The notes under the pieces: generated by a model
Database searches by the model: none
Told to the model about the DNA's origin: nothing
What the model saw: the letters and a program-made list of their open reading frames with translations, nothing else
Origin: an uncultured Pleomorphomonas sp.
Lineage (GTDB): Bacteria > Pseudomonadota > Alphaproteobacteria > Rhizobiales > Pleomorphomonadaceae
NCBI GenBank assembly: GCA_937868725.1
Contig: CALMMQ010000091.1
Span: forward strand, 5,663-37,662
Length of the DNA stretch: 32,000 bases
Direction: 5' to 3'
Translations under genes and position numbers: made by a program
In this document: positions 7,714-31,134 of the stretch, one piece after another
How positions within the stretch are numbered: position 1 is the first letter of the stretch
Layout: each line of letters starts with the position of its first letter

Positions 7714-9099
7714 TCAAGCGGCAGGCAGGCGCACCTCCACCGCCAGGCCGCCGGTTGGCGCCCTGCCAAGGGCAATGGAGCCGCCGTAGGTCTCGACGAT
7801 CTCACTGGCGACGGCCAGACCGATGCCGGAACCCGGCACCGTCTCGTCGAGCCGCTTGCCGCGTCCGAGCACGCTGGCGTACTGGCTCACCGGCATGCCC
7901 GGCCCGTCGTCGTTGACAGCGATCACCACCATGGGGCGATAGCGATCGGTGCCGTCGAGGCGCAGATGGACATCGACCTGCTCGCGGCCGAACTTGCAGG
8001 CGTTGTCCATGATGTTGCCGACGACTTCCTCAAGGTCGCGCCGTTCGATGCGGGCGGCGACGCCGGCCGCATCGACAATGGTTTCGAGGGAGATGACGCG
8101 GTCGGGATGGGCGCGGCCGATGACCTTGGCCAGCGCCTCGAGCGAGTGCAGCACCATGGCTTTGGCACCCACCACCTTGCGGTCGGCGGCGAGCCGGGCC
8201 CGGTCGAGGTAGCGCTGCACTTCCGACTGCATGGCGCTCGCCTGCTCGATCACTTTTTCCGACAGCGGGCCGCCATCGGCGCGCGCCTCGTTGAACATCA
8301 CGGCGAGCGGCGTCTTGAGGGCGTGGGCGAGATTGCCGACCTGGGTGCGGGAGCGCTCGACGATGGCGCTGTTGGCCTCGATCAGAGCGTTGAGTTCCTT
8401 GACCAGCGGACCGATCTCGCTGGGAAAGCGTCCCTCGAGATGACTGGCCTTGCCCTCGCGGATGGCGGCCAGCGACCGCGTGACAGCACCGAGCGGCCGC
8501 AGGCCAACGCGTACCTGCAGTACCGAGGCGATCATCAGGCCGAGGGCGAAGACGGCAAGGGTGGCAAACACCTGCACGCCGAAGGTCGAGATTTCACCAG
8601 ACAGTTCCTCGACGTTGCCGGTGACAAAGAGATCGAAGGTGCGGCCGCCGCTGAGGTAGACGCGCTGGGAGACCGAGCGCAACCGCATGCCGGCGGGATC
8701 GTGCGCCTCGGCCGTTGCAACGACACCGTTGTTGGGCGGTTCTGGCAGGTCAAGCACTTCGCCGAGCAGCGATTGGCTGGCGGCCACCACCTCGCGCGTC
8801 TTGGGATTGCGCACCATCCAGTACCAGCCGGACTGGAAGCGGCCGAAGCGCGGATCGCCCATGGTGCCGGCGTCGGGCGCTTCGGTCGGGCCGGCGTCGG
8901 CGACGACACCGGCCAGCGTCTTCTCGAACACGATGATGCGTTCGTCGAAGGAGCGGATAAGGCTGGAGGTATAGAGCTGCACCAGCAGCCAGCCGGCACC
9001 GGCCAGCGCCAGGGCGCTCCAGAGCAGCGAGGTGAGAATGAGGCGGATGGCCAGCGAACCGGTCAGGCGGTCGCGCCAGGCCGCGAGGTGGCTCATCAT
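7714..9099 (-). CDS. Two-component sensor histidine kinase (461 aa), FeuQ/PhoQ-like
   Basis: Two TM segments flank a periplasmic domain. H-box VGNLAHALKTPLAV; ATPase motifs DNACKFG, DDGPGMP, GSGIGLAV. The start overlaps the stop of the upstream regulator. Confidence 0.9.
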   Translation of the reverse strand: MMSHLAAWRDRLTGSLAIRLILTSLLWSALALAGAGWLLVQLYTSSLIRSFDERIIVFEKTLAGVVADAGPTEAPDAGTMGDPRFGRFQSGWYWMVRNPKTREVVAASQSLLGEVLDLPEPPNNGVVATAEAHDPAGMRLRSVSQRVYLSGGRTFDLFVTGNVEELSGEISTFGVQVFATLAVFALGLMIASVLQVRVGLRPLGAVTRSLAAIREGKASHLEGRFPSEIGPLVKELNALIEANSAIVERSRTQVGNLAHALKTPLAVMFNEARADGGPLSEKVIEQASAMQSEVQRYLDRARLAADRKVVGAKAMVLHSLEALAKVIGRAHPDRVISLETIVDAAGVAARIERRDLEEVVGNIMDNACKFGREQVDVHLRLDGTDRYRPMVVIAVNDDGPGMPVSQYASVLGRGKRLDETVPGSGIGLAVASEIVETYGGSIALGRAPTGGLAVEVRLPAA

Positions 9100-9767
9100 C
9101 GCCCCTCGCCGGTCGAGGAGATGCGATAGCCGAGACCGCGCACGGTCTCGATAAGGTCGATGCCCATCTTCTTGCGCAGCCGGCCGACAAAAACCTCGAT
9201 GGTGTTGGAATCGCGGTCGAAGTCCTGATCGTAGAGGTGTTCCACCAACTCGGTGCGCGACACCACCTTGTCGACATGCAGCATCAGGTACTGGATGAGA
9301 CGAAACTCGTGCGAAGTGAGCTTGATCGGATTGCCGGCGACAGTCAGTCGCCCGGCCTTGACGTCCAGACGGACCGTGCCGATCTCGATTTCATTGGATG
9401 CGCGACCGGCGGCCCGCCGCATCAGCGCCCTGAGGCGAGCCAGCACCTCTTCCATGTGGAAGGGCTTGGCGACGTAGTCATCGGCACCGGCGTCGATGCC
9501 GGCCACCTTGTCCGACCAGCGGTCGCGGGCGGTCAGCAGCAGCACCGGCACCAGCCGGTCGGCCCGGCGCCAGGCTTCGAGCACACTGAGCCCGTCCATC
9601 TTGGGCAGGCCGATGTCGAGAATGACGGCGTCGTAGGGCTCGGTGTCGCCAAGGAAGTGACCTTCCTCGCCGTCATAGGCACTGTCGACGACGTAACCGG
9701 CATCGCGGCAGGCAGCGGTCAGCTGGCGATTGAGATCGAGATCATCCTCGACGATCAGAATCCGCAT
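9096..9767 (-). CDS. OmpR/PhoB-family response regulator (223 aa), FeuP/PhoP-like
   Basis: MRILIVEDD...DAVILDIGLPKMDG...DDYVAKPF receiver domain, plus a winged-helix C-terminus ...LTSHEFRLIQYLM...TVRGLGYRI. Confidence 0.93.
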   Translation of the reverse strand: MRILIVEDDLDLNRQLTAACRDAGYVVDSAYDGEEGHFLGDTEPYDAVILDIGLPKMDGLSVLEAWRRADRLVPVLLLTARDRWSDKVAGIDAGADDYVAKPFHMEEVLARLRALMRRAAGRASNEIEIGTVRLDVKAGRLTVAGNPIKLTSHEFRLIQYLMLHVDKVVSRTELVEHLYDQDFDRDSNTIEVFVGRLRKKMGIDLIETVRGLGYRISSTGEGR

Positions 9768-10134: not shown

Positions 10135-13100
10135 TCATAAGGCGATCGTCGCCTGCAGTGGCCAGCCGGCGCCAACCGTTTCGCTCATCTGGGTGATCCG
10201 GACGTCGAGGCTGGCAGCCGGAGCGCCGAAGTCGGCCACTTGCGCGGCGGCCGCATAGCGCGCCCCCGGCTCGGTGACAGCGATGAGGCGGCGGATGCTA
10301 TCGCCGCTCAGGATGGCGATCTCATAGGCCTCCGTCCTTTCGCCGAGCGCCACGTCGACGGCGGCGAAGTCGTCACCGCCACTGCGCGTCCGCCGCACCC
10401 AGGAAAACAGGATGTCGCCGCTCTCAGCCTCGCGGCGCGCCTTGAGATGGACCGGGGCGAGCGGCCGCAGGCCGACACCGGTCGGCGTGACGGTGAGCGA
10501 GGCCAGTTCGTCGTCGGCGAGCCCGGCCGTGGCGTCGCCGACCCGCAGCGACAGCGGTCGGGCAATGGCGTCGCTGGCAAGCGGCAACTGAACGAGCGCC
10601 TGATCAAGCAGCACGAAGTCGGCTCCGGCGGCGTGTCCGCTGGCGGCTAGGCGCTCGCTGCCGCCCTGCCCGCGCAGCAGGCCGGACAGGCGGTAGCGGT
10701 AGGCGCCGATGAGCTCGGCGGCGAGAAACTGGATGAGCTCCCAGCCGCCGGCTGGCGAGCCGATGGCGGCAAGGTTCGCACCGGCCAGCACCGCCGTCTC
10801 GCTGGCGGACGCCAGCGTGCCGCGCACCAGCTCGACGTCGATATGACTAGCGCGGTCGAAGCGCCAGACCGGACCGGCCGGAACGGCAGTGGCCACCGTT
10901 CCGATGGTTGCCGCCCGCGTGAGCGTCTTCAGGACGGCAAAAGTACCGCCGACGTCGGCGTAGGCGGCGACGCGGCCGGGCCACGGCACGGAACAGACTG
11001 CCAGCCAGGGCCGATACGGCTTGTCGTCGCCGTCGCGAGCCGGCAGGTCGAGCACCAGCGCCAAGGGCGCGGCGATCGCCGGCAGCGATGTCAGCCGCCG
11101 GTCACCGAAGGGGAGAGCCGCCGCCCGTCGCAGCGACACCGGCACCACGGTCGTGGCCTCGATGAGGCGGCAGTCGCCGTCCTTGATCGACGCGACGCGC
11201 AGCCGCGCCGTCGTCTCGCGGCGAGCCAGCGTCACGACATCGCCCGGTTCGAGCGCCAGCGCCGTAGGCGACAGGCGGAAACGCACGTTCTCGCGCCCGG
11301 CCTCAAGATCGCGCAACCAGGCATCGGCGTGCCCCTGCATCACGGCTGCCGCCGCCATCACCGGCAGGCTGACATCCTTGACGCGTGGCGGCCCGTCACG
11401 CTGGGCCGAGACGGCGGCCGACTGGCCGTCGGCGGCGCTGTCACTGAAGGCGATCGCCACGGCTCCGGGCACGTCGGCGTCCTGAGCGCGGCGCACTTCG
11501 AGGTCGGCCTCGCCAGCGGTCGTCGCCAGATCGTCGTCGGTGAAGGCGGCCACCACCCGGTCGTCGGGATCGGCGAACGTCAGGCCGTTGGCGGTTTCGA
11601 CGACGCTGAAGCCGAGCACGGTCTGAAACGGTGTCAGCAGGTCGCGCAGCGAGCCGCGTTCGGCGATGGCAAGGCCATCGAACACCGGGGTCAGGCCGGT
11701 GGCGTCGATCGTCGCCAGGCCGAGCGCCTTGGCGAGCGCTTCGACCACCTCGCCCAGCGGCGCGGCGCCGAGCCGGCCGGTCAGCCAATGGCCGGTCTGC
11801 CAGTTGCCGCCGTCCTGCCAGACGTCGGTGGCGAGCGGAAACCAGGGATAGGGTCGGGCGTCCCAGGTCCAGACGTGGGCGCGCGCCACGTCGACCATGC
11901 GGCGCCCATCGCGCGGCGAGATGGGATTGTCGGCGCTGCGGAAGCCGGAGGCCGCCGGATCGAAGTGGCCGATCAGCGCCTCAAGGTAACGGCGCTGCGC
12001 CGCGTCATCGCGGCGGCCGTGGCTGAACCAGGGCGACCGCCCTTCCGAGGAACGGGCGTCGGGGAAGACGTTGGGCTGATTGGGGCCGAAGTCGACGGCC
12101 GGGCAGCCGATCTCGGTGAAGCGGATCGGCTTGAGGCCGGGCAGCCAGGCGCTGGCGGTCGCGAGCTCGACACCGCCGACGCGGTCGTAGTGGCGGTTCG
12201 ACCACCAGCCGACCAGATCCTTGCAGCGCCAGAGCCATGGCTTGCCGTAGTCGTCGCTGATCGGCGTTCGGCGGCCGGCCAGACGATCGGTGTCGCTCGG
12301 GTAATACCAGTCGAAGCCCTCGCCGCCGGCCACGTTGGCCGCGAGATAGCCAAGGTCATAGGGACCGGCCGAGGTCGTCCGGTCGGGACCGTCGACGTCA
12401 CGCCAGTCGCTGAGGGGGAAATAGGCGTCGATGCCGATGAAGTCGACGTCGGCCGACGTCCAGAGCGCATCGAGGTGAAAGGCGAAATCGCCGGCGCCGG
12501 CCTGATGGCCGTTCCACTCCGTCCAGTCGGCGGCGTAGGAGACGCGGGTGGCGCTGCCGAGCAGCGATTTGACGTCGTGGGCCAGTGTCACGAGGCCGTT
12601 GACGAAGGGATAGCTCCGCCCGGCGCCGCGCACCGTCGTCAAACCGACGAGCTCCGAACCGATCAGGAACGTCTCGACGCCGCCGGCAGCGGCGCACAGG
12701 GCGGCGTAGTGTAGCACCATGCGGCGATAGTGCCAGTCGTCCCCGCCCGAAAAAGTGACGGTCGTGCCGGACGCGGCGAACTGGTTCGGCTGCGCCGTAC
12801 CAAGGAAGGCGTCGATCTCGGCGGTCGCCGCCGCGCTGCCCCAGGGTGAACCAGCCACGTCCTTGGCCGGATGGCAGGTTATGCGGCCGCGCCAGGGCAA
12901 GGCCGCCTGTTCGGATTTTCCATAGGGGTCGGGTCGGCCGTTGCCGGCCGGCACGTCCATCATCACGAACGGGTAGAAAGTGACGGCAAGACCACGTGCT
13001 TTGAGCGCCCTGATGACCTCGACGACGCTGTCGTCGCTCGGCGTGCCGCCGTAGACGGCGGCGCCTGCCACCGTCGAAACGACGGCGGCATGGCTCCGCG

Positions 13101-14007
13101 TTTCCCCAGACACCGACCAGACGAGGCCGGACGTCGCCTTGGCGGCGTTCTCCACCTTGGGCCGGATGGTGCAGACGCCGGCCCGGAGATCATCGCCGAA
13201 CCAGGTGACAACGACGGCGACGCTTTCAAGCGCCGGGCAGACGGCGACCAGTTCGTCGAGCGAGGCTTCGAGATCGCTGGCCGCCACAGCGGCGTGGCGG
13301 TTCTCGGGCGCCGTCACGCCGGTACGGAGCTGCCGCGTTACCTTGGTGGTAGCGTAGCCGAACTCGGTGGCGGCGGGAATCAGCGTCACGGCTCGGATCA
13401 TGGACTCGAGCCGGCCAACCGGCCGGATCACCTCGAAGGTCAGCTGCGGCAGGCCATTGCCGAAGTCCTCGATCGGCAAGCGTTCGAACACCACGTACGC
13501 CAGGCCGCGATAGGCCGGCGCGCTCTGCTGGCGGGCCAGAATCAGCGAATCCGGCTCCTGCGTTTCGTCGCCGAGATAGACGCGCATCGTTACCTTGGTG
13601 AGATCGAGGAGATCGCCATTGGCCCAGACGCGGCCGACGCGAGCGATCGGCCCTTCGCAGAGGCCAACGGCGAAGTTGGCGAAATAGCTGTAGGTGGTGG
13701 TCTTGGCGCCGCGTCCCTTGCCGCCGACCGTCTCCGACGTGGTTACTTCCTCGAACCTGGTCGCCCAGATCACTTCGCCAGCCACGCGCATGCGGCCGAA
13801 AAGACGGGGAATGGCCGCCCCTTCGTCGGACGACTGCACGTCGAGGCTCTTGAGGCGGGCGCCAGTGGTCGACGACGACGAGCCGAACAGCGATCGGTCG
13901 ACGAGACCGCCGACCAGTGCCCCAGCCGCCTGGCCGAGGATGGCGGCGGTCGAGCCGAAAAGACCACCGACCGCCGAACCGGCGGCGGCGAGAAGCAGCG
14001 TTGCCAT
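10135..14007 (-). CDS. GTA g15 homologue: large baseplate/host-specificity multidomain protein (megatron-like, 1290 aa)
   Basis: N-terminus MATLLLAAAGSAVGGLFG...RLKSLDVQSSDEGAAIPRLFGRMRVAGEVIWATRFEE...YSYFANFAVGLCEGPI is characteristic of GTA ORFg15 / phage gpJ-like proteins. Its size and terminal position in the cluster fit. Confidence 0.9.
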   Translation of the reverse strand: MATLLLAAAGSAVGGLFGSTAAILGQAAGALVGGLVDRSLFGSSSSTTGARLKSLDVQSSDEGAAIPRLFGRMRVAGEVIWATRFEEVTTSETVGGKGRGAKTTTYSYFANFAVGLCEGPIARVGRVWANGDLLDLTKVTMRVYLGDETQEPDSLILARQQSAPAYRGLAYVVFERLPIEDFGNGLPQLTFEVIRPVGRLESMIRAVTLIPAATEFGYATTKVTRQLRTGVTAPENRHAAVAASDLEASLDELVAVCPALESVAVVVTWFGDDLRAGVCTIRPKVENAAKATSGLVWSVSGETRSHAAVVSTVAGAAVYGGTPSDDSVVEVIRALKARGLAVTFYPFVMMDVPAGNGRPDPYGKSEQAALPWRGRITCHPAKDVAGSPWGSAAATAEIDAFLGTAQPNQFAASGTTVTFSGGDDWHYRRMVLHYAALCAAAGGVETFLIGSELVGLTTVRGAGRSYPFVNGLVTLAHDVKSLLGSATRVSYAADWTEWNGHQAGAGDFAFHLDALWTSADVDFIGIDAYFPLSDWRDVDGPDRTTSAGPYDLGYLAANVAGGEGFDWYYPSDTDRLAGRRTPISDDYGKPWLWRCKDLVGWWSNRHYDRVGGVELATASAWLPGLKPIRFTEIGCPAVDFGPNQPNVFPDARSSEGRSPWFSHGRRDDAAQRRYLEALIGHFDPAASGFRSADNPISPRDGRRMVDVARAHVWTWDARPYPWFPLATDVWQDGGNWQTGHWLTGRLGAAPLGEVVEALAKALGLATIDATGLTPVFDGLAIAERGSLRDLLTPFQTVLGFSVVETANGLTFADPDDRVVAAFTDDDLATTAGEADLEVRRAQDADVPGAVAIAFSDSAADGQSAAVSAQRDGPPRVKDVSLPVMAAAAVMQGHADAWLRDLEAGRENVRFRLSPTALALEPGDVVTLARRETTARLRVASIKDGDCRLIEATTVVPVSLRRAAALPFGDRRLTSLPAIAAPLALVLDLPARDGDDKPYRPWLAVCSVPWPGRVAAYADVGGTFAVLKTLTRAATIGTVATAVPAGPVWRFDRASHIDVELVRGTLASASETAVLAGANLAAIGSPAGGWELIQFLAAELIGAYRYRLSGLLRGQGGSERLAASGHAAGADFVLLDQALVQLPLASDAIARPLSLRVGDATAGLADDELASLTVTPTGVGLRPLAPVHLKARREAESGDILFSWVRRTRSGGDDFAAVDVALGERTEAYEIAILSGDSIRRLIAVTEPGARYAAAAQVADFGAPAASLDVRITQMSETVGAGWPLQATIAL

Positions 14008-16089: not shown

Positions 16090-16338
16090 GTGCCCATTCC
16101 GCATGAACTCGCTGTAGAATTCCCTCAGGCGTTCGAGTTCATCCAGGCTATCGAGCAGGACGATCATTCGTTCTGCGGTGTTACGGGGGCTTATCAGCAG
16201 ATCAATCGCCGCATTTACCGGATTGAATCGCTGATCGAGCCGGCAAGTAACGAAGTACTGGATGAACTCAAGCGGCGGCGTGAACTCCTCCGCCAAGAGA
16301 TCGCGACCTTCGTCGCAACCAAAAGCGCAGTGGCTTGA
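16090..16338 (+). CDS. DUF465 (YdcH-like) small coiled-coil protein (82 aa), opposite strand to the GTA genes
   Basis: GTG start preceded by GGAGAAGG. PHELAVEFPQAFEFIQAIEQDDHSF...YQQINRRIYRIESLIEPASNEVLDELKRRRELLRQEI fits the DUF465 pattern (HEL..FPE...I..L...D..F..L...Y..LN..I.R.E......E.L..LKK.RL.LKDEI). The locus is lower in GC: I counted 50-55% in two 60-nt samples. Confidence 0.75.
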   Translation: MPIPHELAVEFPQAFEFIQAIEQDDHSFCGVTGAYQQINRRIYRIESLIEPASNEVLDELKRRRELLRQEIATFVATKSAVA

Positions 16339-16363
16339 CACCCCTCCTCGTTGGGCCTCAGCG

Positions 16364-16951
16364 CTATAGCCCGCGCCGTCCCCGTCCGACGGCGCGGGCT
16401 AGCATCACGCCAAGCTGCGCTTCGGATTGACGGAAGCTGTCGGCGTTGGGCGTCGTCACGTTGAAGGTGACGTTGACACTGCCGCCACCGCCCCGCACGC
16501 CAAGGCTGCCATCGGCCGTCCGGCCCAGCGGCAGGATGGCTTCGGCACCCGCTTCCCCCATCACCCCCAGCCCACCGTTGCCGAGGGGGAAGTAGCTCGG
16601 CGTCGCCACGACGCCGCCGCTGGCGAACGGGACGACACCACCCTTGGCGAAGCCGGTGAGACCCAGCAGTTGGCCGAACAGGTTGCCGGTGGTACCAGCC
16701 AGCGAGCCGGCCAGGTTCTCGATCAGCGACACCAGCGGCTTCAGCGATGCTTCCAGCGCGGCGCCCGACAATCGCAGCGCGACCTGCTTCAAGGTGTCGT
16801 CGAGCGAGCGCCCCTGCAACACGGCCGATTTCAGCCCGGAGGTCAGCGCCTTGCTGAAGGAACCAGCCGCCGCCTCGAGGGCGGCGAAGTCCTTGAGCCG
16901 GGCGCCGAGGTCGGTGCCAAGGGCCCGGGTATTCAGCGCGTCATCGGCCAT
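16364..16951 (-). CDS. GTA g11 homologue: short tail tape measure protein (195 aa)
   Basis: Position between g10.1 and g12. Ala/Leu/Gly-rich helical N-terminus, then FAKGGVV..GGVVATPSYFPLGNGGLGVMGEAGAEAILPL, typical of the GTA tape measure C-terminal region. Confidence 0.75.
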   Translation of the reverse strand: MADDALNTRALGTDLGARLKDFAALEAAAGSFSKALTSGLKSAVLQGRSLDDTLKQVALRLSGAALEASLKPLVSLIENLAGSLAGTTGNLFGQLLGLTGFAKGGVVPFASGGVVATPSYFPLGNGGLGVMGEAGAEAILPLGRTADGSLGVRGGGGSVNVTFNVTTPNADSFRQSEAQLGVMLARAVGRGRRGL

Positions 16952-17931: not shown

Positions 17932-17973
17932 GTCTTTCTCCTGTCGTTATTTGTCAGCTTCTTTTTGAGCCGG

Positions 17974-21540: not shown

Positions 21541-21629
21541 AACAGGCCACTGGCGCCGCTCGCCCAGAGAAACAGGGCCAGGTGGGCAAGATCGCCACGT
21601 TCGACGAAGACATTGGCAAGGTCGATCAT
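21417..21629 (-). CDS. Small membrane protein (70 aa) at the g3.5 position of GTA clusters
   Basis: MIDLANVFVERGDLAHLALFLWASGASGLLILVLKELL... with one predicted TM helix. The ATG overlaps the portal stop (ATGA at 21626-21629). A GGAGA sits about 9 nt upstream. Confidence 0.5.
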   Translation of the reverse strand: MIDLANVFVERGDLAHLALFLWASGASGLLILVLKELLAQVRRFDAFVSEISHLNQRLNSDDPTSTTGPK

Positions 21630-22828
21630 GACGCCGCATCTCCGGTCGTCGCACCGGCTGCTGCCTCCGGGCCGTAGCCGACGGCGGCCCGCTTTTCGTC
21701 GCGGCTCAGGAAGTCCACCGCCGCCACCCGTGCCCAGATGGCATCGCGTTCGGCCTGCAGCGAGGGCACCTGATCGAGGTCGAGTTCCACCCGGAGATCG
21801 TCGCCGAAGGCTGGCAGCAGCCAGCCGCCGATGGCGTCGGCGATCTTGCGGGCGAGCGGCAGAATGGTCTGGCGCCACAGCGCCCGGTTCGCCTCCTGAT
21901 AGTTGGCGTAGGTGGCGTCCCCGGGGATGCCGAGCAGCATCGGCGGCACACCAAAAACGAGTGCGATCTCGCGCGCGGCCATGTTGCGGGCTTCGACGAA
22001 GTCCATCTCCTTGGGGCTGAGGGCCATCGACTTCCAGTCGAGTCCCCCTTCCAGTACCAGCGGCCGGCCAGCGTTCTCCGCTCCCTGGTAGCCGCGCTCG
22101 AGCTCATCCTTCAGCCGGTCGAACTGGTCTTCCGAGAGACCGTGCGGACCGGTGTAGACCAGAGCGCCGGACGGGCGGGCAGCGTTGTCGAGCAGCGCCT
22201 TGTTCCAGGTGGCGGCGGCGTTGTGGATGTCGAGGCTGGTCAGCGAGGCGGCCACCGGCGCCAGACCGTAGTGATCGTCGAGCGGGTGAAAGCTCTTGAG
22301 ATGCAGGATGGGCGCGATGCCGTCCGGCGCCTCGGCCGGCAGGCGCAAGGTCCGGCCATCGACAGTGTAGTCGTACCCGGTCGGCCAGCCGTCGGGACCG
22401 ATGACGACACGCAGGCGGTCGGGCCGCAGGACGTGCAGTTCGCGCGGCCGGCCGCCGGCAGTCACCACCTCGAGAAAGGCGTTGCCAGCCACCAGAAGAT
22501 GGCTCGCCACCGTCTCGACCAGCGACGCCAGGCCGTCACGCGAGTTGGGGCGACGGATGAGGTCGAGGAAGGCATGGTGATCAATATCCTGAACACCGGC
22601 CTTGAGAACCCAGGGCACCTGTCCAGCCGCTTCCGCCACCATGCGCACAGCGCGGAAGACGATGGGGTTGCCCATGTAGCCGGCCCGCGCCAGTTCGCCA
22701 TAGCTGCTGCCGGACCACACGGCCCGGCTGGAGGCGAAGGCCAGCATTGCGCCGGACCGCCCTCCCTTCGCCTCGCGCTTGTCGGGCGCCGGGCGGCGAC
22801 GCGGCCAGCTCAGCCATCCTGCACTCAT
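21626..22828 (-). CDS. GTA g3 homologue: HK97-family portal protein (400 aa)
   Basis: Start MSAGWLSWPRRR (ATG at 22828, RBS AAGGAAAGG). ...NPIVFRAVRMVAEAAGQVPW...LLVAGNAFLEVV...DHYGLAPVAA...NARPSGALVY... is typical of this portal family. Confidence 0.92.
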   Translation of the reverse strand: MSAGWLSWPRRRPAPDKREAKGGRSGAMLAFASSRAVWSGSSYGELARAGYMGNPIVFRAVRMVAEAAGQVPWVLKAGVQDIDHHAFLDLIRRPNSRDGLASLVETVASHLLVAGNAFLEVVTAGGRPRELHVLRPDRLRVVIGPDGWPTGYDYTVDGRTLRLPAEAPDGIAPILHLKSFHPLDDHYGLAPVAASLTSLDIHNAAATWNKALLDNAARPSGALVYTGPHGLSEDQFDRLKDELERGYQGAENAGRPLVLEGGLDWKSMALSPKEMDFVEARNMAAREIALVFGVPPMLLGIPGDATYANYQEANRALWRQTILPLARKIADAIGGWLLPAFGDDLRVELDLDQVPSLQAERDAIWARVAAVDFLSRDEKRAAVGYGPEAAAGATTGDAAS

Positions 22829-22844
22829 GGCCTTTCCTTTCATC

Positions 22845-22873
22845 AGTCTAGAACTGGAACAAAACAGGATCAA
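22845..22873 (-). promoter_or_regulatory. Candidate sigma-70-like promoter for portal and downstream GTA genes
   Basis: Minus strand TTGATC-N17-TAGACT (-35 at 22868-22873, -10 at 22845-22850), about 17 nt upstream of the portal ATG. Pattern match only. Confidence 0.3.
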
Positions 22874-22948
22874 TCGACTGGACGGGTGCCGCTGCCGCTG
22901 GCATGATCGGACGCCAGAGAATCCCGAAGATCCTGCAACGGTTGGTCC

Positions 22949-23665
22949 ATGTCCCGCGCCGAACGTCTTCTCATGCTCGTCCAGGCCCTGCGCCGCCGCC
23001 GCCGTCCGGTTGCCGGCGCCGTGCTGGCCGATGAGCTTTGCGTGTCGTTGCGCACGCTCTATCGCGACATCCAGGCCCTGATCGGCCAGGGTGCGCCGAT
23101 CGAGGGCGAGGCCGGTGTCGGCTACGTGCTGAAGCCGGGCTTCATGCTGCCGCCACTGATGTTCACCGAAGATGAAATCGAGGCGCTGGTGTTCGGCACG
23201 CGCCTTGCCGCTACGCGCGCCGACGAACGGCTGGCCTCGGCAGCGGAGAATGCGCTCGCCAAGATCGCCGCCGTACTACCGCCCGACCTCGCCGACCGCA
23301 TGGAGACCACCGGCCTCATCGTGGCGCCACCGTGGAACGCCCGGCCGGACGCCGTCGATCTCGGCCTCGTCCGCACCGCCATCCGCAACGAAACGCGGCT
23401 GCAGTTCTCCTACGTCAACGAAAAGGGCATCGCCACGCGGCGCGTCGTCTGGCCGATTGCCGTCGCCTTCTTCGAACGGGCGCGTGTACTCACGGCCTGG
23501 TGCGAGCTCCGGCAGGACTTCCGCCACTTCCGCCTCGACCGCATGGCCGAAGCCGTCGACCTCGGCGTGCGCTATCCGCGCCGCCGGCGCCAGCTGATGA
23601 AGGAGTGGCGCGAACTCGAGCCGGCGGTGCCGTCCGGCGAGATCGCCGCACCGAAGCCGGCCTGA
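22949..23665 (+). CDS. YafY-family transcriptional regulator: N-terminal HTH plus WYL domain (238 aa)
   Basis: MSRAERLLMLVQALRRRRRPVAGAVLADELCVSLRTLYRDIQALIGQGAPIEGEAGVGYVLKPGFMLPPLMFTEDEIEAL is the canonical HTH_11/YafY N-terminus. Then RLQFSYVNEKGIATRRVVWPIAVAFFERARVLTAWCELRQDFRHFRLDRM is WYL-like. Confidence 0.88.
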   Translation: MSRAERLLMLVQALRRRRRPVAGAVLADELCVSLRTLYRDIQALIGQGAPIEGEAGVGYVLKPGFMLPPLMFTEDEIEALVFGTRLAATRADERLASAAENALAKIAAVLPPDLADRMETTGLIVAPPWNARPDAVDLGLVRTAIRNETRLQFSYVNEKGIATRRVVWPIAVAFFERARVLTAWCELRQDFRHFRLDRMAEAVDLGVRYPRRRRQLMKEWRELEPAVPSGEIAAPKPA

Positions 23666-23744
23666 AGCGCCGTTGCTGCTGACAGGCCGTTGCGATCGCC
23701 GCTGCTAAGCTGGCGGTCTCTCCAACCGGTGAGCCAATCCCGCC

Positions 23745-24137
23745 ATGTCCTCCATGACCGCACAACACCCCGTCATCGCCCTCGAACAGGCCGCCCTCGC
23801 CCGCTGGTGCCGCGGCGATCCGTCCGGCTTCCTCGAACTCTCGGCCGCCGATGTCAGCTATTTCGATCCGTTCCAACCCAGACGCCTCGACGGCATCGCC
23901 GAACTGGCGGCGCTCTACGCCACGCTGCGCGGCCAGATCAGCGCCCCGCATTACGAGATGATCGACCCGCGCGTCACCCTTTGCGGCAACGCCGCCGTGC
24001 TGTCCTTCCGTTTCAACTCGTGGGGCGACGACCCCGCCGCCGCCATGCGCTGGAACTGCACCGAGGTCTATCGCTACGATGACGACGGCTGGCGCATCGT
24101 CCAGACCCATTGGTCGCTCACGGGGGCTGGCTGCTAG
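23745..24137 (+). CDS. NTF2-like / SnoaL-DUF4440 family small protein (130 aa)
   Basis: ...LEQAALARWCRGDPSGFLELSAADVSYFDP... and the C-terminus NCTEVYRYDDDGWRIVQTHWS fit the NTF2-fold (DUF4440) pattern. Co-oriented 79 nt downstream of the WYL regulator. Confidence 0.7.
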   Translation: MSSMTAQHPVIALEQAALARWCRGDPSGFLELSAADVSYFDPFQPRRLDGIAELAALYATLRGQISAPHYEMIDPRVTLCGNAAVLSFRFNSWGDDPAAAMRWNCTEVYRYDDDGWRIVQTHWSLTGAGC

Positions 24138-24164
24138 CTTGCTGTCATATTTTGTCAGCAATAG

Positions 24165-25523
24165 TTAACGAAGCGTCCGCACCCGCGGGTCGCCGCGTCG
24201 GTCCATCAGCGCCGTGATCGCCCAGACCAGCGCGTCGAGCCGGTCGGGTGATCGGCCACCGGACAAACCGTCCAGACCGAAGTCGCACATCTCGTCCTCG
24301 AGCTCGGCGAACAGACCGGCGTGGCGTACCCGTCCCTGGGCGTAGAGGGCGGCCACCGGTTCGGCCCGCACCCACTTGCCGCGGCTGGCCCGGACCATGT
24401 CCACCACCAGCGCCGGGTCGATCTGGGCAATCACCGAGGCGACCATGTCACCGCCCTGGTTGACCTCGGCGACGAGACGGTCGGCCTCCTGTTCGTGATA
24501 GAGGGCGACGGCACGGCCAGCCCAGACCTCCGGTCGGGCGCCGCGCACCGAGGCATCGGCGAGCACGATCGCCCGCCCCTCGCCGTCCAGCCCGGCAGCG
24601 ATGATGCCGCAGGCATCCGACGTCCGGTTCGACGAGGCCGGCGGGTCGATGGCCACGACGACACGCCTGACCTCCGGCCGGACGGACAGACGGATCGCCT
24701 CGATCTGCGCCCGGCTCCACAGCGCGTCCTGGCGGTCCTCGACCATTTCGCCGTCGAGTTCCTGGCGCCCAAGCCGCGTGCCCTGATAGCGGCCGACAAT
24801 GGTTGTCAGAAAGCCGTCGGCGAGAAAGGCGGCATTGTCGGCGGTGCGCGCCCGGCTGATCACCGTCCCGGGGGCGGCGATCAGTCGGCGCAGCAGTGGG
24901 ATGGGGCGCGGTGTCGTCGTCACCACCTGGCGTGGCCGGGAACCGCGCCGGAGGCCGAACTGCAACATGTCGAAGGTGGCGTCGGCATATTTCCACTTGG
25001 CCACCTCGTCGGACCAGGCGGCATCGAACTGCGGTCCGCGCAAGGCGTCCGGGTCTTCGGACGAGAACACCTGCGCCACGGCGCCGTTGTCCCATTGCAG
25101 GCGGCGCAATGACGGCGACCAGCGCGGCCGGTTCCAGCGCGGGTGGATGGCGATCAGTCCGGACACGCCCTCGATCATCACGTCGCGCGCCGCCTGATAG
25201 GTCTCGCCGACCAGGGCAATGCGCCCGGCCGGCGGGCCGCCGGCGTGTTCGGCGCCGGCGACGATGGCGCGCACCCATTCGGCACCGGTGCGTGTCTTGC
25301 CGGCACCGCGACCGCCCATCACCAGCCACACCGTCCAGTCGCCCGGCGGGGCCAGTTGATCGGCACGGGCGTAAACCGGCCAGCAGGTGGCGAGGGCGAT
25401 CTTCTGTTCGTCACTCAGCCGCGCGAGCCAGGCCCGCCGCTCGGCCGTCGACAAAAGCCTCGAGCGCCTCAAGAAGCGATTGCTCCAGCCCCGGCTCCGG
25501 AGCGGTCGCTGCGTCTGTCTCAT
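24165..25523 (-). CDS. GTA g2 homologue: large terminase subunit (452 aa from the ATG at 25523; true start uncertain)
   Basis: QLAPPGDWTVWLVMGGRGAGKTRTGAEWV (Walker A) ... WSDEVAKW ... VAIDPPASS...DACGII (nuclease). ATG 25523 would overlap g1 by 113 nt; a TTG at 25454 is an alternative start. Confidence 0.9.
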   Translation of the reverse strand: MRQTQRPLRSRGWSNRFLRRSRLLSTAERRAWLARLSDEQKIALATCWPVYARADQLAPPGDWTVWLVMGGRGAGKTRTGAEWVRAIVAGAEHAGGPPAGRIALVGETYQAARDVMIEGVSGLIAIHPRWNRPRWSPSLRRLQWDNGAVAQVFSSEDPDALRGPQFDAAWSDEVAKWKYADATFDMLQFGLRRGSRPRQVVTTTPRPIPLLRRLIAAPGTVISRARTADNAAFLADGFLTTIVGRYQGTRLGRQELDGEMVEDRQDALWSRAQIEAIRLSVRPEVRRVVVAIDPPASSNRTSDACGIIAAGLDGEGRAIVLADASVRGARPEVWAGRAVALYHEQEADRLVAEVNQGGDMVASVIAQIDPALVVDMVRASRGKWVRAEPVAALYAQGRVRHAGLFAELEDEMCDFGLDGLSGGRSPDRLDALVWAITALMDRRGDPRVRTLR

Positions 25524-25809
25524 CGCTGCCGGCACGTCGACCTCGCGGATTGATTTCGAGTTCCCTGATCTTGCCGACGAGCGCGGCAAGCGCGGTGGCG
25601 AGCTTCACCTCGCGGTCATCGAGCGGCGCGTTGGCCGCCAGCGCGTCGGCTTCGGCGCGTTCGATCTGGCGCGTGGCGATACGCTTCAGGCCGGCGAGCA
25701 TGCCGTCGACGTCGGCCGCCGCCGTCTCGGCAGGTGGGCTGGTCACCGGCGGCGGCGCCAGCCGCTCGGCGGCCAGCTGTCGCATCCTCGGCCTTGCGCT
25801 GGTTGCCAT
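25411..25809 (-). CDS. Small ORF at the GTA g1 position (132 aa; putative small terminase-like/g1 protein)
   Basis: Start MATSARPRMRQLAAERL (ATG at 25809, GGAAGG upstream). Helical, Ala/Glu-rich. It is the first gene of the cluster, directly upstream of and overlapping terL. The assignment is positional only. Confidence 0.5.
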   Translation of the reverse strand: MATSARPRMRQLAAERLAPPPVTSPPAETAAADVDGMLAGLKRIATRQIERAEADALAANAPLDDREVKLATALAALVGKIRELEINPRGRRAGSDETDAATAPEPGLEQSLLEALEAFVDGRAAGLARAAE

Positions 25810-25851
25810 CTGTCCTTCCCGCTTCGCTTTGCTGCCGCCAGCGGCAAACAA

Positions 25852-25868
25852 AAAGGCGACGCGCCTTT
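25852..25868 (-). terminator. Short terminator-like hairpin in the leader upstream of g1 (or the terminator of the upstream YitT-like gene)
   Basis: Minus strand aaaggcg-cgt-cgccttt followed by ttgtttg. 7-bp stem, 3-nt loop; the T-run is partly inside the stem. Confidence 0.4.
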
Positions 25869-25904
25869 CGGCCCGCCGCCTCGCAACTATCGGATCATGC
25901 CCAG

Positions 25905-25933
25905 AAGCTACCTGAGCAGCGTCACGCTGTCAA
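25905..25933 (-). promoter_or_regulatory. Candidate sigma-70-like promoter upstream of GTA g1
   Basis: Minus strand TTGACA-N17-TAGCTT (-35 at 25928-25933, -10 at 25905-25910), in the AT-richer stretch between the YitT-like stop and g1. Pattern match only. Confidence 0.3.
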
Positions 25934-25985
25934 GTGTGTTTCTTGAATATGTATATTTATGCGTGCATCACCTGGCCACGTCGGC

Positions 25986-26615
25986 TCAGTAGCCGTTATA
26001 GCGGCCGGGCTTGTGGTTGACGGCCAGCACCATGTTGAGCACCACCGCGCCGACCACCGACAGCGCCACCAGGTGCCAGTCCAGCACCAGGAAGGCCGCC
26101 GCCAGGATCACGCAGTCCATGCCAAGCTGGAACTTGCCGGCCCGCCAGCCGAACCGCTCCTGCACGAAGGCGGCGAGAATGCCGATGCCGCCGAGGCTCG
26201 AGCGGTGACGCAGCAGGATCAACAGACCGATGCCGACCAGCAGGCCACCCATCACCGCCGAATACCAGGGATTGCTCATGCCGATGGCAAACACCTTCGA
26301 CAGCAGCATGCTCTCGACGGCGAACAGCGCCACGGCGCCGAAAGTCTTGAAGGTGAACTCCTTGCCGAGCGTCACCCAGCCGAAGGCATAGAACGGCAGG
26401 TTCAGTACGAACAGCACCTGCCCGATGCCCCAGTCGGACACGTAATGGATCAGGAACGACATGCCGGCGGTGCCGCCGGTGGCCAGATGTGCTTGGCGGA
26501 AGAACTCCGTTCCCAATGCCGCCAGCAGCGTTCCAACCACGATGGCCTGGATGTCCTCGGCCAAACCATGGCGCACCGGGTCGTCCGTCCGCTGGCTATC
26601 TCTATCGTCAAGCAT
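25986..26615 (-). CDS. YitT-family integral membrane protein (209 aa, membrane domain only)
   Basis: Multiple TM segments. ...HLATGGTAGMSFLIHYVSDWGIGQVLFVLNLPFYAFGWVTLGKEF... resembles the YitT/DUF161 N-terminal domain. Confidence 0.75.
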   Translation of the reverse strand: MLDDRDSQRTDDPVRHGLAEDIQAIVVGTLLAALGTEFFRQAHLATGGTAGMSFLIHYVSDWGIGQVLFVLNLPFYAFGWVTLGKEFTFKTFGAVALFAVESMLLSKVFAIGMSNPWYSAVMGGLLVGIGLLILLRHRSSLGGIGILAAFVQERFGWRAGKFQLGMDCVILAAAFLVLDWHLVALSVVGAVVLNMVLAVNHKPGRYNGY

Positions 26616-26882: not shown

Positions 26883-27092
26883 ATGAAGATTTCCGCCCGC
26901 AACGTACTCGAAGGCACCGTCGTCAAGGTCACCAAGGGTGCCACCACCGCCCACGTCGTTCTGGAGCTCGCCGGCGGCGCCAAGGTTACCGCCTCGATCA
27001 CCAACGAAGCCGTCGAAGACCTCGGCCTCAAGGCCGGCGACAAGGCCAAGGCCATCGTCAAGGCGTCGGACGTTCTCGTCGCCATCGACTGA
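26883..27092 (+). CDS. mop: Molybdenum-pterin-binding protein Mop / molbindin (TOBE domain, 69 aa)
   Basis: MKISARNVLEGTVVKVTKGATTAHVVLELAGGAKVTASITNEAVEDLGLKAGDKAKAIVKASDVLVAID is a textbook Mop/TOBE sequence. AAGGAG RBS. This is the real gene inside the spurious long ORF 25959..27092. Confidence 0.9.
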   Translation: MKISARNVLEGTVVKVTKGATTAHVVLELAGGAKVTASITNEAVEDLGLKAGDKAKAIVKASDVLVAID

Positions 27093-28896: not shown

Positions 28897-31134
28897 GTGG
28901 CAGATCACAAGCGCACGTCTCGTTGGCGCCTCAAATTGCTCGCGGTTGATGCCTGGGTCGATAGCACGACCTGGGCCGGTTGGCGTGCGTTTTCGCGCTT
29001 CTGGTCGTTGGCGCTGGATTTTTCCGGGCAATTGCGGGTGCGCGGCAAGCTGCGCGCCGTCTTCGAACTCGCGTCCGAAGGGGCGACGCTTGGTACCGTT
29101 GGCTTTGTCGGCCTGCTGACGCTGGCTCAGCCGGCCTTCAAGGCAACGCAGGGCGACTGGCGTGCCCGTGGCGACTATGCCGTCACCTTTCAGGACCGCA
29201 ACGGCGCCGTCATCGGTCGGCGCGGCATGTTCCTCGACGACAGCGTGCCGCTCAGCGAGATGCCGCCGCATCTCATCCAGGCCACCCTCTCGACCGAGGA
29301 TCGCCGCTTCTACGAGCATTTCGGCATCGACCCGCTTGGTCTGGTGCGCGCGGTGCTGACCAATGCCAAGGCCGGCGGTGTCGTTCAGGGTGGTTCGACA
29401 CTGACCCAGCAGTTGGCCAAGAACCTGTTCCTGTCCAATGAGCGGACCATCCAGCGCAAGATCAACGAGGCCTATCTGGCCCTCTGGCTGGAGGCGCAAC
29501 TCACCAAGGACGAAATCCTCAAGCTCTATCTCGACCGCGCCTACATGGGGGGCGGCACCCATGGCGTGACGGCGGCGGCGGAATACTATTTCGGCAAGTC
29601 GGTGCAGAACCTGACGCTGGCCGAGTCGGCGATGCTCGCCGGCCTCTACAAAGCCCCGACCAAGTACTCTCCCAACGTCAACCTGGCCGCCGCCCGCGCG
29701 CGCGCCAATCAGGTGCTTTCCAACATGGTCGAGGCCGGCTACCTCACCGAGGCGCAGGTCGTTTCGGCCCGGCGCGCGCCGGCAACGCCGGTGCCGACCA
29801 GTGCCGGCACGGCGCCCGACTGGTATCTCGACTGGGCCTTCGACGAGGTCAAGCGCATCGCTCCGCCGGGCGACCGCACCATCACCGTCCGGACGACGCT
29901 CGACCCGGCCGCCCAAAGGGCGGCGGAAACGGCGGTCGCCGACATGCTTCGCCAGTATGGCGCTCAGTACAAGGTCAAGCAGGCGGCCACGGTGGTGCTC
30001 GATCTCAACGGCGGTGTGCGTGCCATGGTCGGCGGCAGCGACTACGGCGAAAGCCTGTTCAACCGCGCCGTCTACGCGCTGCGCCAGCCGGGTTCGTCGT
30101 TCAAGCCGTTCGTCTATGCCACGGCGTTCATGAACGGCTACGCTCCCGACGACACCATCTCCGACGCGCCGATCACCATCGGCAACTGGAGCCCGCGCAA
30201 CTACGGCCGCTCCTATGCCGGCCGCATCAGTCTGCGCACCGCTATTGCCAAGTCGATCAACACGGTGCCGGTGCGACTCGCCGAGAGTTTCGGACGCGGC
30301 AAGATCGTCGAAACCGCCCATGCCCTCGGCATCAACACTGAACTCAAGATCACCCGCGCGCTGCCGTTGGGCGTTGCCGAGGTGACGCCGCTCGACATGG
30401 CCGGCGCCTATGGCGGCTTTGCCAATGCCGGCATCAAGACGACGCCGTTCGCCGTGCTGTCGGCCAAGACGCGAGCGGGCGATGTGACCTACGACCGGGC
30501 CCGCGATGAGGCGCCGCCACGGCGCGTTCTGCCCGAAGACATCGCCTACGAGATGAACGACGTGCTTTCCACCGTCGTCAACGCCGGTACCGGCGGCAAG
30601 GCCAAGTTCCCCGGCCAGATGCAGGCGGGCAAGACCGGCACGACGCAGGCCTATCGCGACGCCTGGTTCGTCGGCTTCACCGGCTGGTACGCCTGCTCGG
30701 TGTGGATGGGCAACGACGATTACACCTCAACGGCCAACATGACCGGCGGCAGCCTGCCGGCCATGACCTGGCGCGCCGTCATGGAACCGATCCACGCCGG
30801 CCTGCCGTTCAAGCCGATCCCCGGCGTCGCCGTGCCGCCTGACCTGCTCAAGCAGATGCCGGTGGCCCAGAACGCCACCGCGCCGTCCCTGCCCTCGCCG
30901 TCACCGGCGACGCTGACGCCTGCCGCGGCCACCGTCGTCGACGAGCTCGGCAAGATGATGAGCCGCCACCTCGCGCCCTTGGCCGGCGGCCTGCCCGCCG
31001 ACGATCGGTCTGCCACCTCCGACGAAGCGGCCGCCGACAACATCGCCGTCGATGCCTCGATATCCGGCCGCTCTTCCGCTACGCTGGATGGCATCGCATT
31101 CGATGGGGCGCTCGAAGCCTCGGCCGTCCGTTGA
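28897..31134 (+). CDS. Class A penicillin-binding protein (PBP1A family; transglycosylase plus transpeptidase, 745 aa)
   Basis: GTG start. GT51 motifs [31 protein letters not shown]. Transpeptidase motifs SSFKP (SxxK) and KTGTT (KTG). N-terminal TM anchor. Confidence 0.93.

Follow-up and report, generated by a model that had tools for sequence, protein, structure and literature searches.

The window analyzed here is a stretch of 32,000 nucleotides from an uncultured Pleomorphomonas sp., whose minus strand carries a complete gene transfer agent (GTA) cluster of the RcGTA type. Within this cluster, a cassette of two genes on the opposite strand, encoding a YafY-type regulator with HTH_11 and WYL domains and a SnoaL/NTF2-like protein, separates the large terminase gene terL (g2) from the portal gene (g3). 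Comparison with related loci indicates that this cassette is probably long-resident cargo and not a purpose-built GTA switch, and that the main function of the regulator would be independent of the GTA. The features of the junction are as follows.

21626–22828, minus strand: portal gene (g3), 400 residues, with an ATG start (MSAGW...), supported by a Phage_portal match (E = 1e-86) and by gene calls from the same organism.
22829–22948, no strand assigned: intergenic region from which the regulator and portal genes diverge, taken from the sequence.
22949–23665, plus strand: YafY-type HTH_11 and WYL regulator, 238 residues, supported by Pfam, PADLOC, similarity to PafC, a structure model, and orthologues.
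23745–24137, plus strand: SnoaL/NTF2-like protein (DUF4440, YybH-type), 130 residues, supported by Pfam.
24165–25589, minus strand: terL, GTA large terminase (g2), given as the longest open reading frame (ORF) with its stop at 24165, supported by Terminase_6N (E = 5e-25) and Terminase_6C (E = 6e-23).

The gap between the terL stop (24165) and the portal start (22828) measures 1,336 bp (22829–24164) and holds the two plus-strand genes. The regulator and portal genes diverge at a spacing of 120 bp, and the SnoaL and terL stop codons converge across 27 bp. Gene callers assign terL 429–435 residues on contigs of the same organism, i.e., 24165 to about 25472. Identical cassette gene calls and an identical gene order are present in same-organism contigs from four separate metagenomes. 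In Pfam profile searches, the regulator matches HTH_11 at residues 6–59 (E = 8e-14) and WYL at residues 139–202 (E = 4e-14), both well over the Pfam cut-offs, and the SnoaL protein matches SnoaL_3 (E = 6e-11), DUF4440 (E = 4e-10), and SnoaL_2 (E = 4e-9), all likewise above the cut-offs. A generic WYL model of PADLOC also matches the regulator (E = 6e-66); the PADLOC matches are to generic WYL models only, and NCBIfam holds no specific family for either protein. An initial annotation of this DNA, made from the letters alone, had described a two-gene opposite-strand cassette with these domains and a 120-bp divergent region shared by the regulator and portal genes; coordinates, sequence, profile scores, and same-organism contigs bear out this description. 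The surrounding cluster runs from g1 (about 25411–25809) to g15 (10135–14007) and, by Pfam, contains the g1–g15 homologue set of RcGTA in order. Its head and packaging part comprises terminase, portal, S78 protease, capsid, connector, and tail completion proteins, and its tail part comprises the tail tube, the GTA-gp10 tail-assembly-chaperone family, DUF2460, baseplate hub/BR0599, NlpC/P60, and GTA_TIM/Rcc01698_C.

A portal-based scan taking one genome per species yielded 80 Hyphomicrobiales GTA loci, 75 of which have both terL and the portal gene; the closest portals were those of Pleomorphomonas koreensis and of a metagenome-assembled genome (MAG) labelled Rhodobacterales bacterium, each at 71% identity. 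terL and the portal gene lie more than 300 bp apart in 41 of these 75 loci and more than 900 bp apart in 27, with distances of up to 7.5 kb. The gaps hold 70 ORFs of at least 100 residues, on either strand, matching 41 different Pfam families: aldo-keto reductases (9), EamA transporters (5), methyltransferases (about 5), MarR (4), WYL (3), DUF1236 secreted proteins (3), and GGDEF (2), with cupin, Dabb, GIY-YIG, cysteine synthase, PCMT, a response regulator, and an insertion sequence fragment among the remainder. Since so many junctions are split, and by so many unrelated families, the junction is a general insertion point for cellular genes in Hyphomicrobiales GTA clusters. The adjacency of g2 and g3, which the initial annotation had taken as canonical, is not the rule in Hyphomicrobiales. 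Intergenic regions beside the portal gene or g1 are also enlarged in some relatives by GC-rich repeats resembling repetitive extragenic palindromes, e.g., GGTGGACCCCTCATCC...CCCACAAGGGGAGAAGG, at about 5520–5900 in L082, about 7700–7950 in L003, and 8770–9100 in L089.

The regulator has occupied this junction for a long time. At least nine genomes or MAGs (the window, L001, L002, L004, L081, L082/83, L084, L088, and L089/90) carry, in the gap from portal to terL and divergent from the portal gene, an orthologue with an identity of 71% or more; L096 is arranged in this way as far as its terL side is concerned. What follows the regulator gene differs among these relatives.

L001, a MAG: the contig ends directly past the regulator, and the next gene is not seen.
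L002, P. koreensis: no gene.
L004, Chthonobacter rhizosphaerae: a 403-residue gene.
L081/L172, Oryzibacter oryziterrae: a GNAT-SnoaL fusion, TOBE, and HTH_17/PBP_like.
L082/83, Oharaeibacter diazotrophicus: a glyoxalase/Ble-like gene.
L084, Mongoliimonas terrestris: an aldo-keto reductase gene on the other strand.
L088, a JGI contig: a glyoxalase gene.
L089/90, a JGI contig: no gene.
L096, a metagenome contig: a glyoxalase gene.

Every GTA-bearing Pleomorphomonadaceae-like relative found has the regulator at this junction, and 76 GTA loci are without it. Identity of the HTH region is 84–94% inside the clade and 72% against the outgroup introduced below, and the regulator is more conserved than the portal or capsid proteins. 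Because regulator identity falls in step with that of terL, the portal, and g9, in parallel ranks, a single capture followed by vertical descent fits the data. That the cassette is not a recent insertion, as the initial annotation had judged from its host-like GC content, agrees with the position held family-wide, with the identity that tracks the GTA genes, and with a GC content of 0.66–0.69 over 22501–24500, equal to that of the remainder of the window. Across relatives, it is the regulator that is conserved at the junction, but the SnoaL partner is lineage-specific and shared only with Oryzibacter.

Reciprocal losses separate the regulator from the GTA. The Pleomorphomonas-like contigs L092 (89 kb), L093/94 (59 kb), and L095 (13 kb), whose DNA is 85–89% identical to that of P. 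koreensis, lack g1–terL and portal–g15 except for small remnants; in L092, a faint trace of what lies downstream of the portal gene is left at 2702–2886. They keep the g15-side flank, namely, a response regulator gene (9096–9767 in the window) and its neighbors, and the g1-side flank, in which a YitT gene (25986–26615) is followed by a PBP1A gene (28897–31134). An intact regulator gene is also kept, with homology to the window beginning exactly at a conserved 15-bp motif of its upstream region (see below). The three GTA-less contigs differ from one another (dS of 0.6–0.7), and the ratio of nonsynonymous to synonymous substitution rates (dN/dS) of the regulator is 0.04–0.08 in them, also between GTA-less lineages. 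Because purifying selection stays strong after deletion of the GTA, the regulator has a GTA-independent function. Conversely, the Oharaeibacter MAG L003 keeps terL, the portal gene, and tail genes, and its regulator is reduced to residues 141–222, followed by the operator described below and a VOC gene, so GTA genes can persist without the regulator. The co-occurrence or dependence that marks dedicated GTA regulators (the GafA/GafYZ, RogA, and CtrA type) was thus not found, given L092–L095, L003, and the 76 regulator-less GTA loci. The initial annotation had allowed that the cassette could be a passenger, and both the survival of the regulator after GTA loss and the wide acceptance of cargo at the junction agree with this. 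It had also raised the occurrence of the pair at unrelated loci: the regulator does occur free of GTA genes, in near relatives and at about 75 distant loci, but the SnoaL gene is not its conserved partner.

These distant loci point to the origin of the cassette. A metagenome scan supplied an outgroup of 75 more distant regulator homologues, 50–64% identical over their full length. A glyoxalase/VOC gene, an EVE gene, or both lie near the regulator in 62 of the 75 loci, nearly always directly downstream, and a portal or terL gene lies near it in none. Such YafY–VOC(EhpR)–EVE operons have been predicted to be ligand-activated antibiotic-resistance modules (Bell, Wolf and Koonin 2020, PMC7641849). 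L088, L082, L096, and L003 still have the VOC gene beside the regulator within their GTA clusters. The window has no VOC gene, as judged by tblastn and by the mere 27 bp left between the SnoaL and terL genes, and an EVE-domain gene was matched neither in the window nor in any GTA-clade locus. Common to the outgroup loci is the palindrome CTGnCA-N5-TGnCAG, whose spacer is AT-rich and whose extended form is tGCTGnCA-N5-TGnCAGCa. With at most one mismatch, it lies directly downstream of the regulator gene and ahead of the VOC/EVE genes in 59 of 72 outgroup loci, and 35–70 bp upstream of the regulator start in 37 of 71. Because of this comparative evidence, the palindrome is taken as the predicted operator of the regulator family; SiwR (PMC10693628) offers a parallel. 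The window contains one exact copy, against the 3' end of terL.

24142–24158, no strand assigned: exact family operator TTGCTGTCAtatttTGTCAGCAA (extended form), within the 27 bp that separate the SnoaL stop codon from that of terL.

In L088, L082, L096, and L003, its equivalent precedes the glyoxalase gene; that of Oryzibacter follows the GNAT-SnoaL gene. The element was also considered as a bidirectional terminator hairpin, a candidate set aside in view of its AT-rich stem, its central mismatch, and its exact match to the extended operator.

From these observations, a history of the cassette may be proposed. An ancestor of the Pleomorphomonadaceae-like lineage would have captured a YafY-type regulator together with its VOC/glyoxalase target gene, and the pair would have landed in the permissive terL–portal junction. 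The regulator would likely bind, as a dimer and through its winged helix-turn-helix, CTGnCA-N5-TGnCAG ahead of the gene it controls, and its WYL domain probably senses a signal. Depending on the lineage, the VOC gene would then have been kept, lost, or replaced. In the window and Oryzibacter, the SnoaL gene would have been inserted between regulator and operator, and subsequent loss of the VOC gene would have left the operator stranded next to terL.

The SnoaL gene joined the cassette later and is specific to its lineage. Its 1,047 homologues are named NTF2 family, YybH, or ketosteroid isomerase-like, and stand-alone forms are widespread across many taxa. Among 171 related loci, a counterpart was found only in Oryzibacter, as the C-terminal half (66% identical) of the GNAT-SnoaL fusion. 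The Oryzibacter cassette (10767–13077 in L081/L172) has four genes, encoding the regulator, this fusion, a 68-residue TOBE protein, and an HTH_17/PBP_like (ModE-like) regulator; the 69-residue TOBE gene of the window lies outside the cluster, beyond YitT (about 26883–27092). A VOC gene lost, an operator orphaned in the window, and a second gene that varies by genus could be taken to mean that the cassette consists of non-functional, decaying insertion remnants. This is extremely improbable, as the regulator ORF is intact in all clade loci except L003, its dN/dS is 0.04–0.18, its sequence is better conserved than that of the portal or capsid, and an identical SnoaL protein is present in contigs of several metagenomes.

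In the initial annotation, the regulator was instead placed to gate g3–g15 separately from g1–g2, through a portal promoter of their own in the shared 120 bp. The divergent arrangement, at 117–145 bp in most relatives, speaks for such a gate, and no copy of the g1-type promoter precedes the portal gene in any split cluster, so that some other arrangement is needed for its expression. Two conserved elements lie in this region.

22857–22871, plus strand: conserved 15-bp motif GAACAAAACAGGATC (GAACAAAACnnGATC), one base off the SOS box GAAC-N7-GAAC.
22899–22907, plus strand: TGGCATGAT, a putative extended -10-like element of the regulator promoter.

The 15-bp motif, which stands 29 bp from the portal start codon in the window, where its chance expectation is 0.02, also favors a portal promoter at first sight. 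It is exact in the window, L001, L002, L081, L082/83, L089/90, and L092–L095, and always lies 42 bp upstream of TGGCATGAT. The latter is kept in nearly every GTA-clade locus (degenerate in L088) as well as in outgroup operators of the form CTGCCAnnnnnTGGCAT, and is what remains, as a right half, of the upstream operator of the ancestor. Yet, at this fixed spacing, the two motifs travel with the regulator. In L082, the pair is 68 bp from the regulator start versus 410 bp from the portal gene, for which reason both motifs are assigned to the regulator promoter, and in L092–L095 the pair is retained although the portal gene is deleted. Moreover, the 24–33 bp between motif and portal start leave no room for a -10 element, a transcription start, and a Shine-Dalgarno sequence, and a scan of 22600–24400 called no sigma-70-like or terminator-like sites. 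The full family operator is absent from this intergenic region, and dozens of other split clusters have unrelated neighbors or none at this place. With the reciprocal losses added, a portal gate operated by the regulator is very unlikely. GATC-N2-GTTTTGTTC was likewise rejected as the -35 element and spacer of a portal promoter, given the 24–33 bp left to the start, an unconserved -10, and a motif that follows the regulator.

The same motif bears on control of the regulator itself. The alphaproteobacterial SOS box is GTTC-N7-GTTC (PMC9578287). In L084/85 (about 5978–5992 in L084) and in L004, i.e., in the Mongoliimonas and Chthonobacter lineages, the box is perfect (GAAC-N7-GAAC) and is found 14 bp downstream of TGGCATGAT; the clade of the window has GAAC-N7-GATC, 42 bp upstream of TGGCATGAT, instead. 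The background rate of the SOS box is 0.02 per kb, and none of the 74 outgroup regulator promoters examined has a perfect one. LexA control of the regulator in the GTA clade is a reasonable idea on the basis of these motifs. The CtrA box TTAA-N7-TTAA is absent from the window.

Expression of the portal and downstream genes may be traced to the start of the cluster.

25846–25934, minus strand: conserved GTA promoter upstream of g1, with its leader, taken from the sequence and from most of the 80 GTA loci.

The consensus of this element, which precedes g1/terL in most of the 80 loci, is CCTTGACAGCGTGACGCTG-N7-TAGGGT..CATGCTCC, with the palindrome CAGCGTnACGCTG between a consensus -35 (TTGACA) and the -10. 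The window copy, at 25917–25934, has the palindrome CAGCGTgACGCTG between TTGACA and TAGCTT. In the family of the window, the element is followed by a leader of ~55 nt with a GC hairpin and TTTTTGTT (a T-run) before the g1 start codon; in the window itself (about 25846–25882), the leader carries the GC hairpin and TTTTTGTTT. Rfam gave no match, either for the whole window at gathering thresholds or for 22700–26100 at E ≤ 1, so the leader and palindromes are not known RNA families. In silico, the family operator is absent at the g1 promoter. A second, further-upstream copy of the promoter is seen in L016, L021, L028, L057, L073, and L079. Furthermore, the 9-mer GGCATGATC occurs both at 25891–25899, the presumed g1 transcription start, and at 22899–22907 in the regulator promoter. 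This sharing may be coincidence, since most other Hyphomicrobiales g1 promoters have CATGCTCC there, and the copy in the regulator promoter is accounted for as extended -10 plus operator half-site. GafZ of Caulobacter binds a palindrome that likewise lies between -35 and -10, and loads an elongation complex that resists terminators (PMC11150451). By analogy, transcription that starts at the g1 promoter most likely reads through the cassette to reach the portal gene and those downstream of it, and such antitermination on the GTA strand would explain why cargo is tolerated in either orientation.

Read-through would carry transcription past the operator at 24142–24158, which lies on its path, 7 bp from the terL stop. 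A second operator-like site is found farther downstream in the cluster.

17941–17957, no strand assigned: operator-like palindrome with one mismatch before g9 (tail tube), abutting the Shine-Dalgarno sequence.

These two sites raise the possibility, which is doubtful, that the regulator has been co-opted: in addition to a GTA-independent role, it would bind at the terL end and at g9 and act there as a ligand-released roadblock or occluder, making late GTA expression dependent on a second signal, e.g., DNA damage. The g9 palindrome ends about 9 nt before the g9 ATG. It is exact in Oryzibacter (3885–3901 in L172), O. diazotrophicus (696–712 in L082), and L003 (12572–12588); the copies of the window, L001, and L002 (12812–12828) each deviate at one position. 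The flanks are unconserved, and the intergenic regions measure 26–134 bp. The 76 regulator-less GTA loci (about 1.2 Mb) contain no exact match, and none of their one-mismatch matches is at g9. In none of six genomes could the central bases of the two arms pair with each other, which disfavors an RNA hairpin and favors a protein site. In the window, three operator matches are observed against 0.84 expected. On the other side, the regulator is present and the g9 site is absent in L004, L084, L088, and L089, L003 has an exact g9 site yet a truncated regulator, and the regulator is retained where there is no GTA at all. Because the Shine-Dalgarno sequence (CAGGAG) shares bases with the right arm of the palindrome, the match may be partly forced, and the window site, a candidate for binding, is mismatched at a conserved arm position. 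The narrower proposal that, in the subclade of the window organism, Oryzibacter, Pleomorphomonas, and Oharaeibacter, a YafY protein sensing single-stranded DNA or genotoxins is wired into the GTA operon via the terL-end and g9 operators is unlikely. If true, it would mean a ligand-released checkpoint after promoter firing, with head and tail production needing a second signal beyond activation of the GafA/GafYZ type.

Several points weigh against long-resident cargo as the full account. The operator-like sites conserved in the subclade, at g9 and after terL, suggest some GTA wiring, and the SOS-box-like elements gained in the regulator promoter of the clade would fit a link between DNA damage and the GTA. 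The strict family-wide pairing of regulator and portal could reflect selection for position. L003 is a MAG and L092–L095 are metagenome contigs, in which assembly errors are possible, and antitermination is deduced solely from promoter architecture.

A second opposite-strand passenger was noted elsewhere in the cluster, an 82-residue DUF465-like gene (16090–16338, plus strand) between the g11-like gene and g12 (DUF2460). It sits in a low-GC patch (0.58) and has a counterpart at 2043–2294 in L172. The 3' part of the patch (16189–16406) is also kept in the GTA-less contigs (1611–1831 in L092 and 1808–2028 in L094).

The striking presence of a regulator inside a GTA is therefore best read as that of cargo, which calls for caution against over-reading gene neighborhood. 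Full-text searches gave no description of a WYL regulator within a GTA cluster, in line with the initial annotation, nor of relevant insertions in head-tail clusters. The by-products may outweigh this finding, namely, the general hot spot between terL and portal and a conserved g1 promoter that, with the leader terminator following it in the family of the window, matches the antitermination design of Caulobacter. In addition, the predicted operator makes the regulon of the YafY–VOC–EVE regulator family searchable, and the natural reciprocal losses offer ready-made comparisons. If the g9 and terL operator sites are functional, they would represent a new layer of GTA control tied to DNA damage.

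Among proteins of solved structure, the regulator most resembles other WYL regulators. Its AlphaFold model (predicted local distance difference test score, 72) shows a winged helix-turn-helix, a helical linker, a WYL β-barrel, and a single terminal helix, with three helices and a β-hairpin at residues 3–61 and five strands at residues 149–208. The top matches of the model in the PDB are PafBC from actinobacteria, DriD from Caulobacter, CapW, and BrxR (Foldseek E-values of 1e-9 to 1e-6, probability 1.0), and PafC is the closest solved sequence. Indeed, residues R188, R192, F194, R195, D197, and R198 are invariant across 22 regulator homologues, and the R-x-F-R-x-D-R stretch aligns to the VRLFRFDR motif of the PafC WYL domain. 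However, sequence identity to these proteins is only 14–27%, and they have 270–330 residues with a WCX domain. In the model of the regulator, the barrel is followed by one helix (residues 211–222) and a disordered tail, and a WCX-like C-terminal dimerization domain is absent. Since it lacks WCX and has 238 residues, the regulator represents a short YafY-type variant. The adjoining defense system that marks the defense-associated WYL proteins (BrxR, CapW, CRISPR WYL1) was not found, its neighbors being GTA genes and the SnoaL gene. The likeliest signal for its WYL domain would, by analogy with DriD, PafBC, SiwR, and CapW, be single-stranded DNA or genotoxic stress (PMC10693628; PDB titles).

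SiwR of Mycobacterium smegmatis, also an HTH-WYL regulator, acts via an imperfect promoter palindrome on neighboring genes for small enzymes, which are DinB-like or, in some Actinobacteria, glyoxalase-like; its WYL domain binds single-stranded DNA, and its response is to genotoxic stress, zeocin included (PMC10693628). Yet, SiwR has a WCX domain, belongs to another phylum, and uses another operator sequence, and the homology shown is that of the common domain family. The YafY–VOC–EVE module shares with the window a 50–64% identical regulator and the palindromic operator. It differs in that the window has SnoaL instead of VOC/EVE, has lost the upstream (autoregulatory) operator, and carries the unit inside a GTA cluster. 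As regards the promoter, the GafZ-bound element of Caulobacter and the Hyphomicrobiales g1 element both place a palindrome between -35 and -10, but the palindromes differ in sequence, and antitermination, demonstrated in Caulobacter, is here an analogy. In the Caulobacter crescentus GTA, gtaQ and gtaS lie between terL (gtaT) and the portal gene (gtaP) (Tran and Le 2024, PMC11150451), and a strong terminator immediately 3' of terL is bypassed through GafZ antitermination (PMC11150451). Thus, terL and the portal gene are non-adjacent in both clusters, although the intervening genes in Caulobacter are co-oriented GTA genes, whereas those of the window are cellular genes on the opposite strand.

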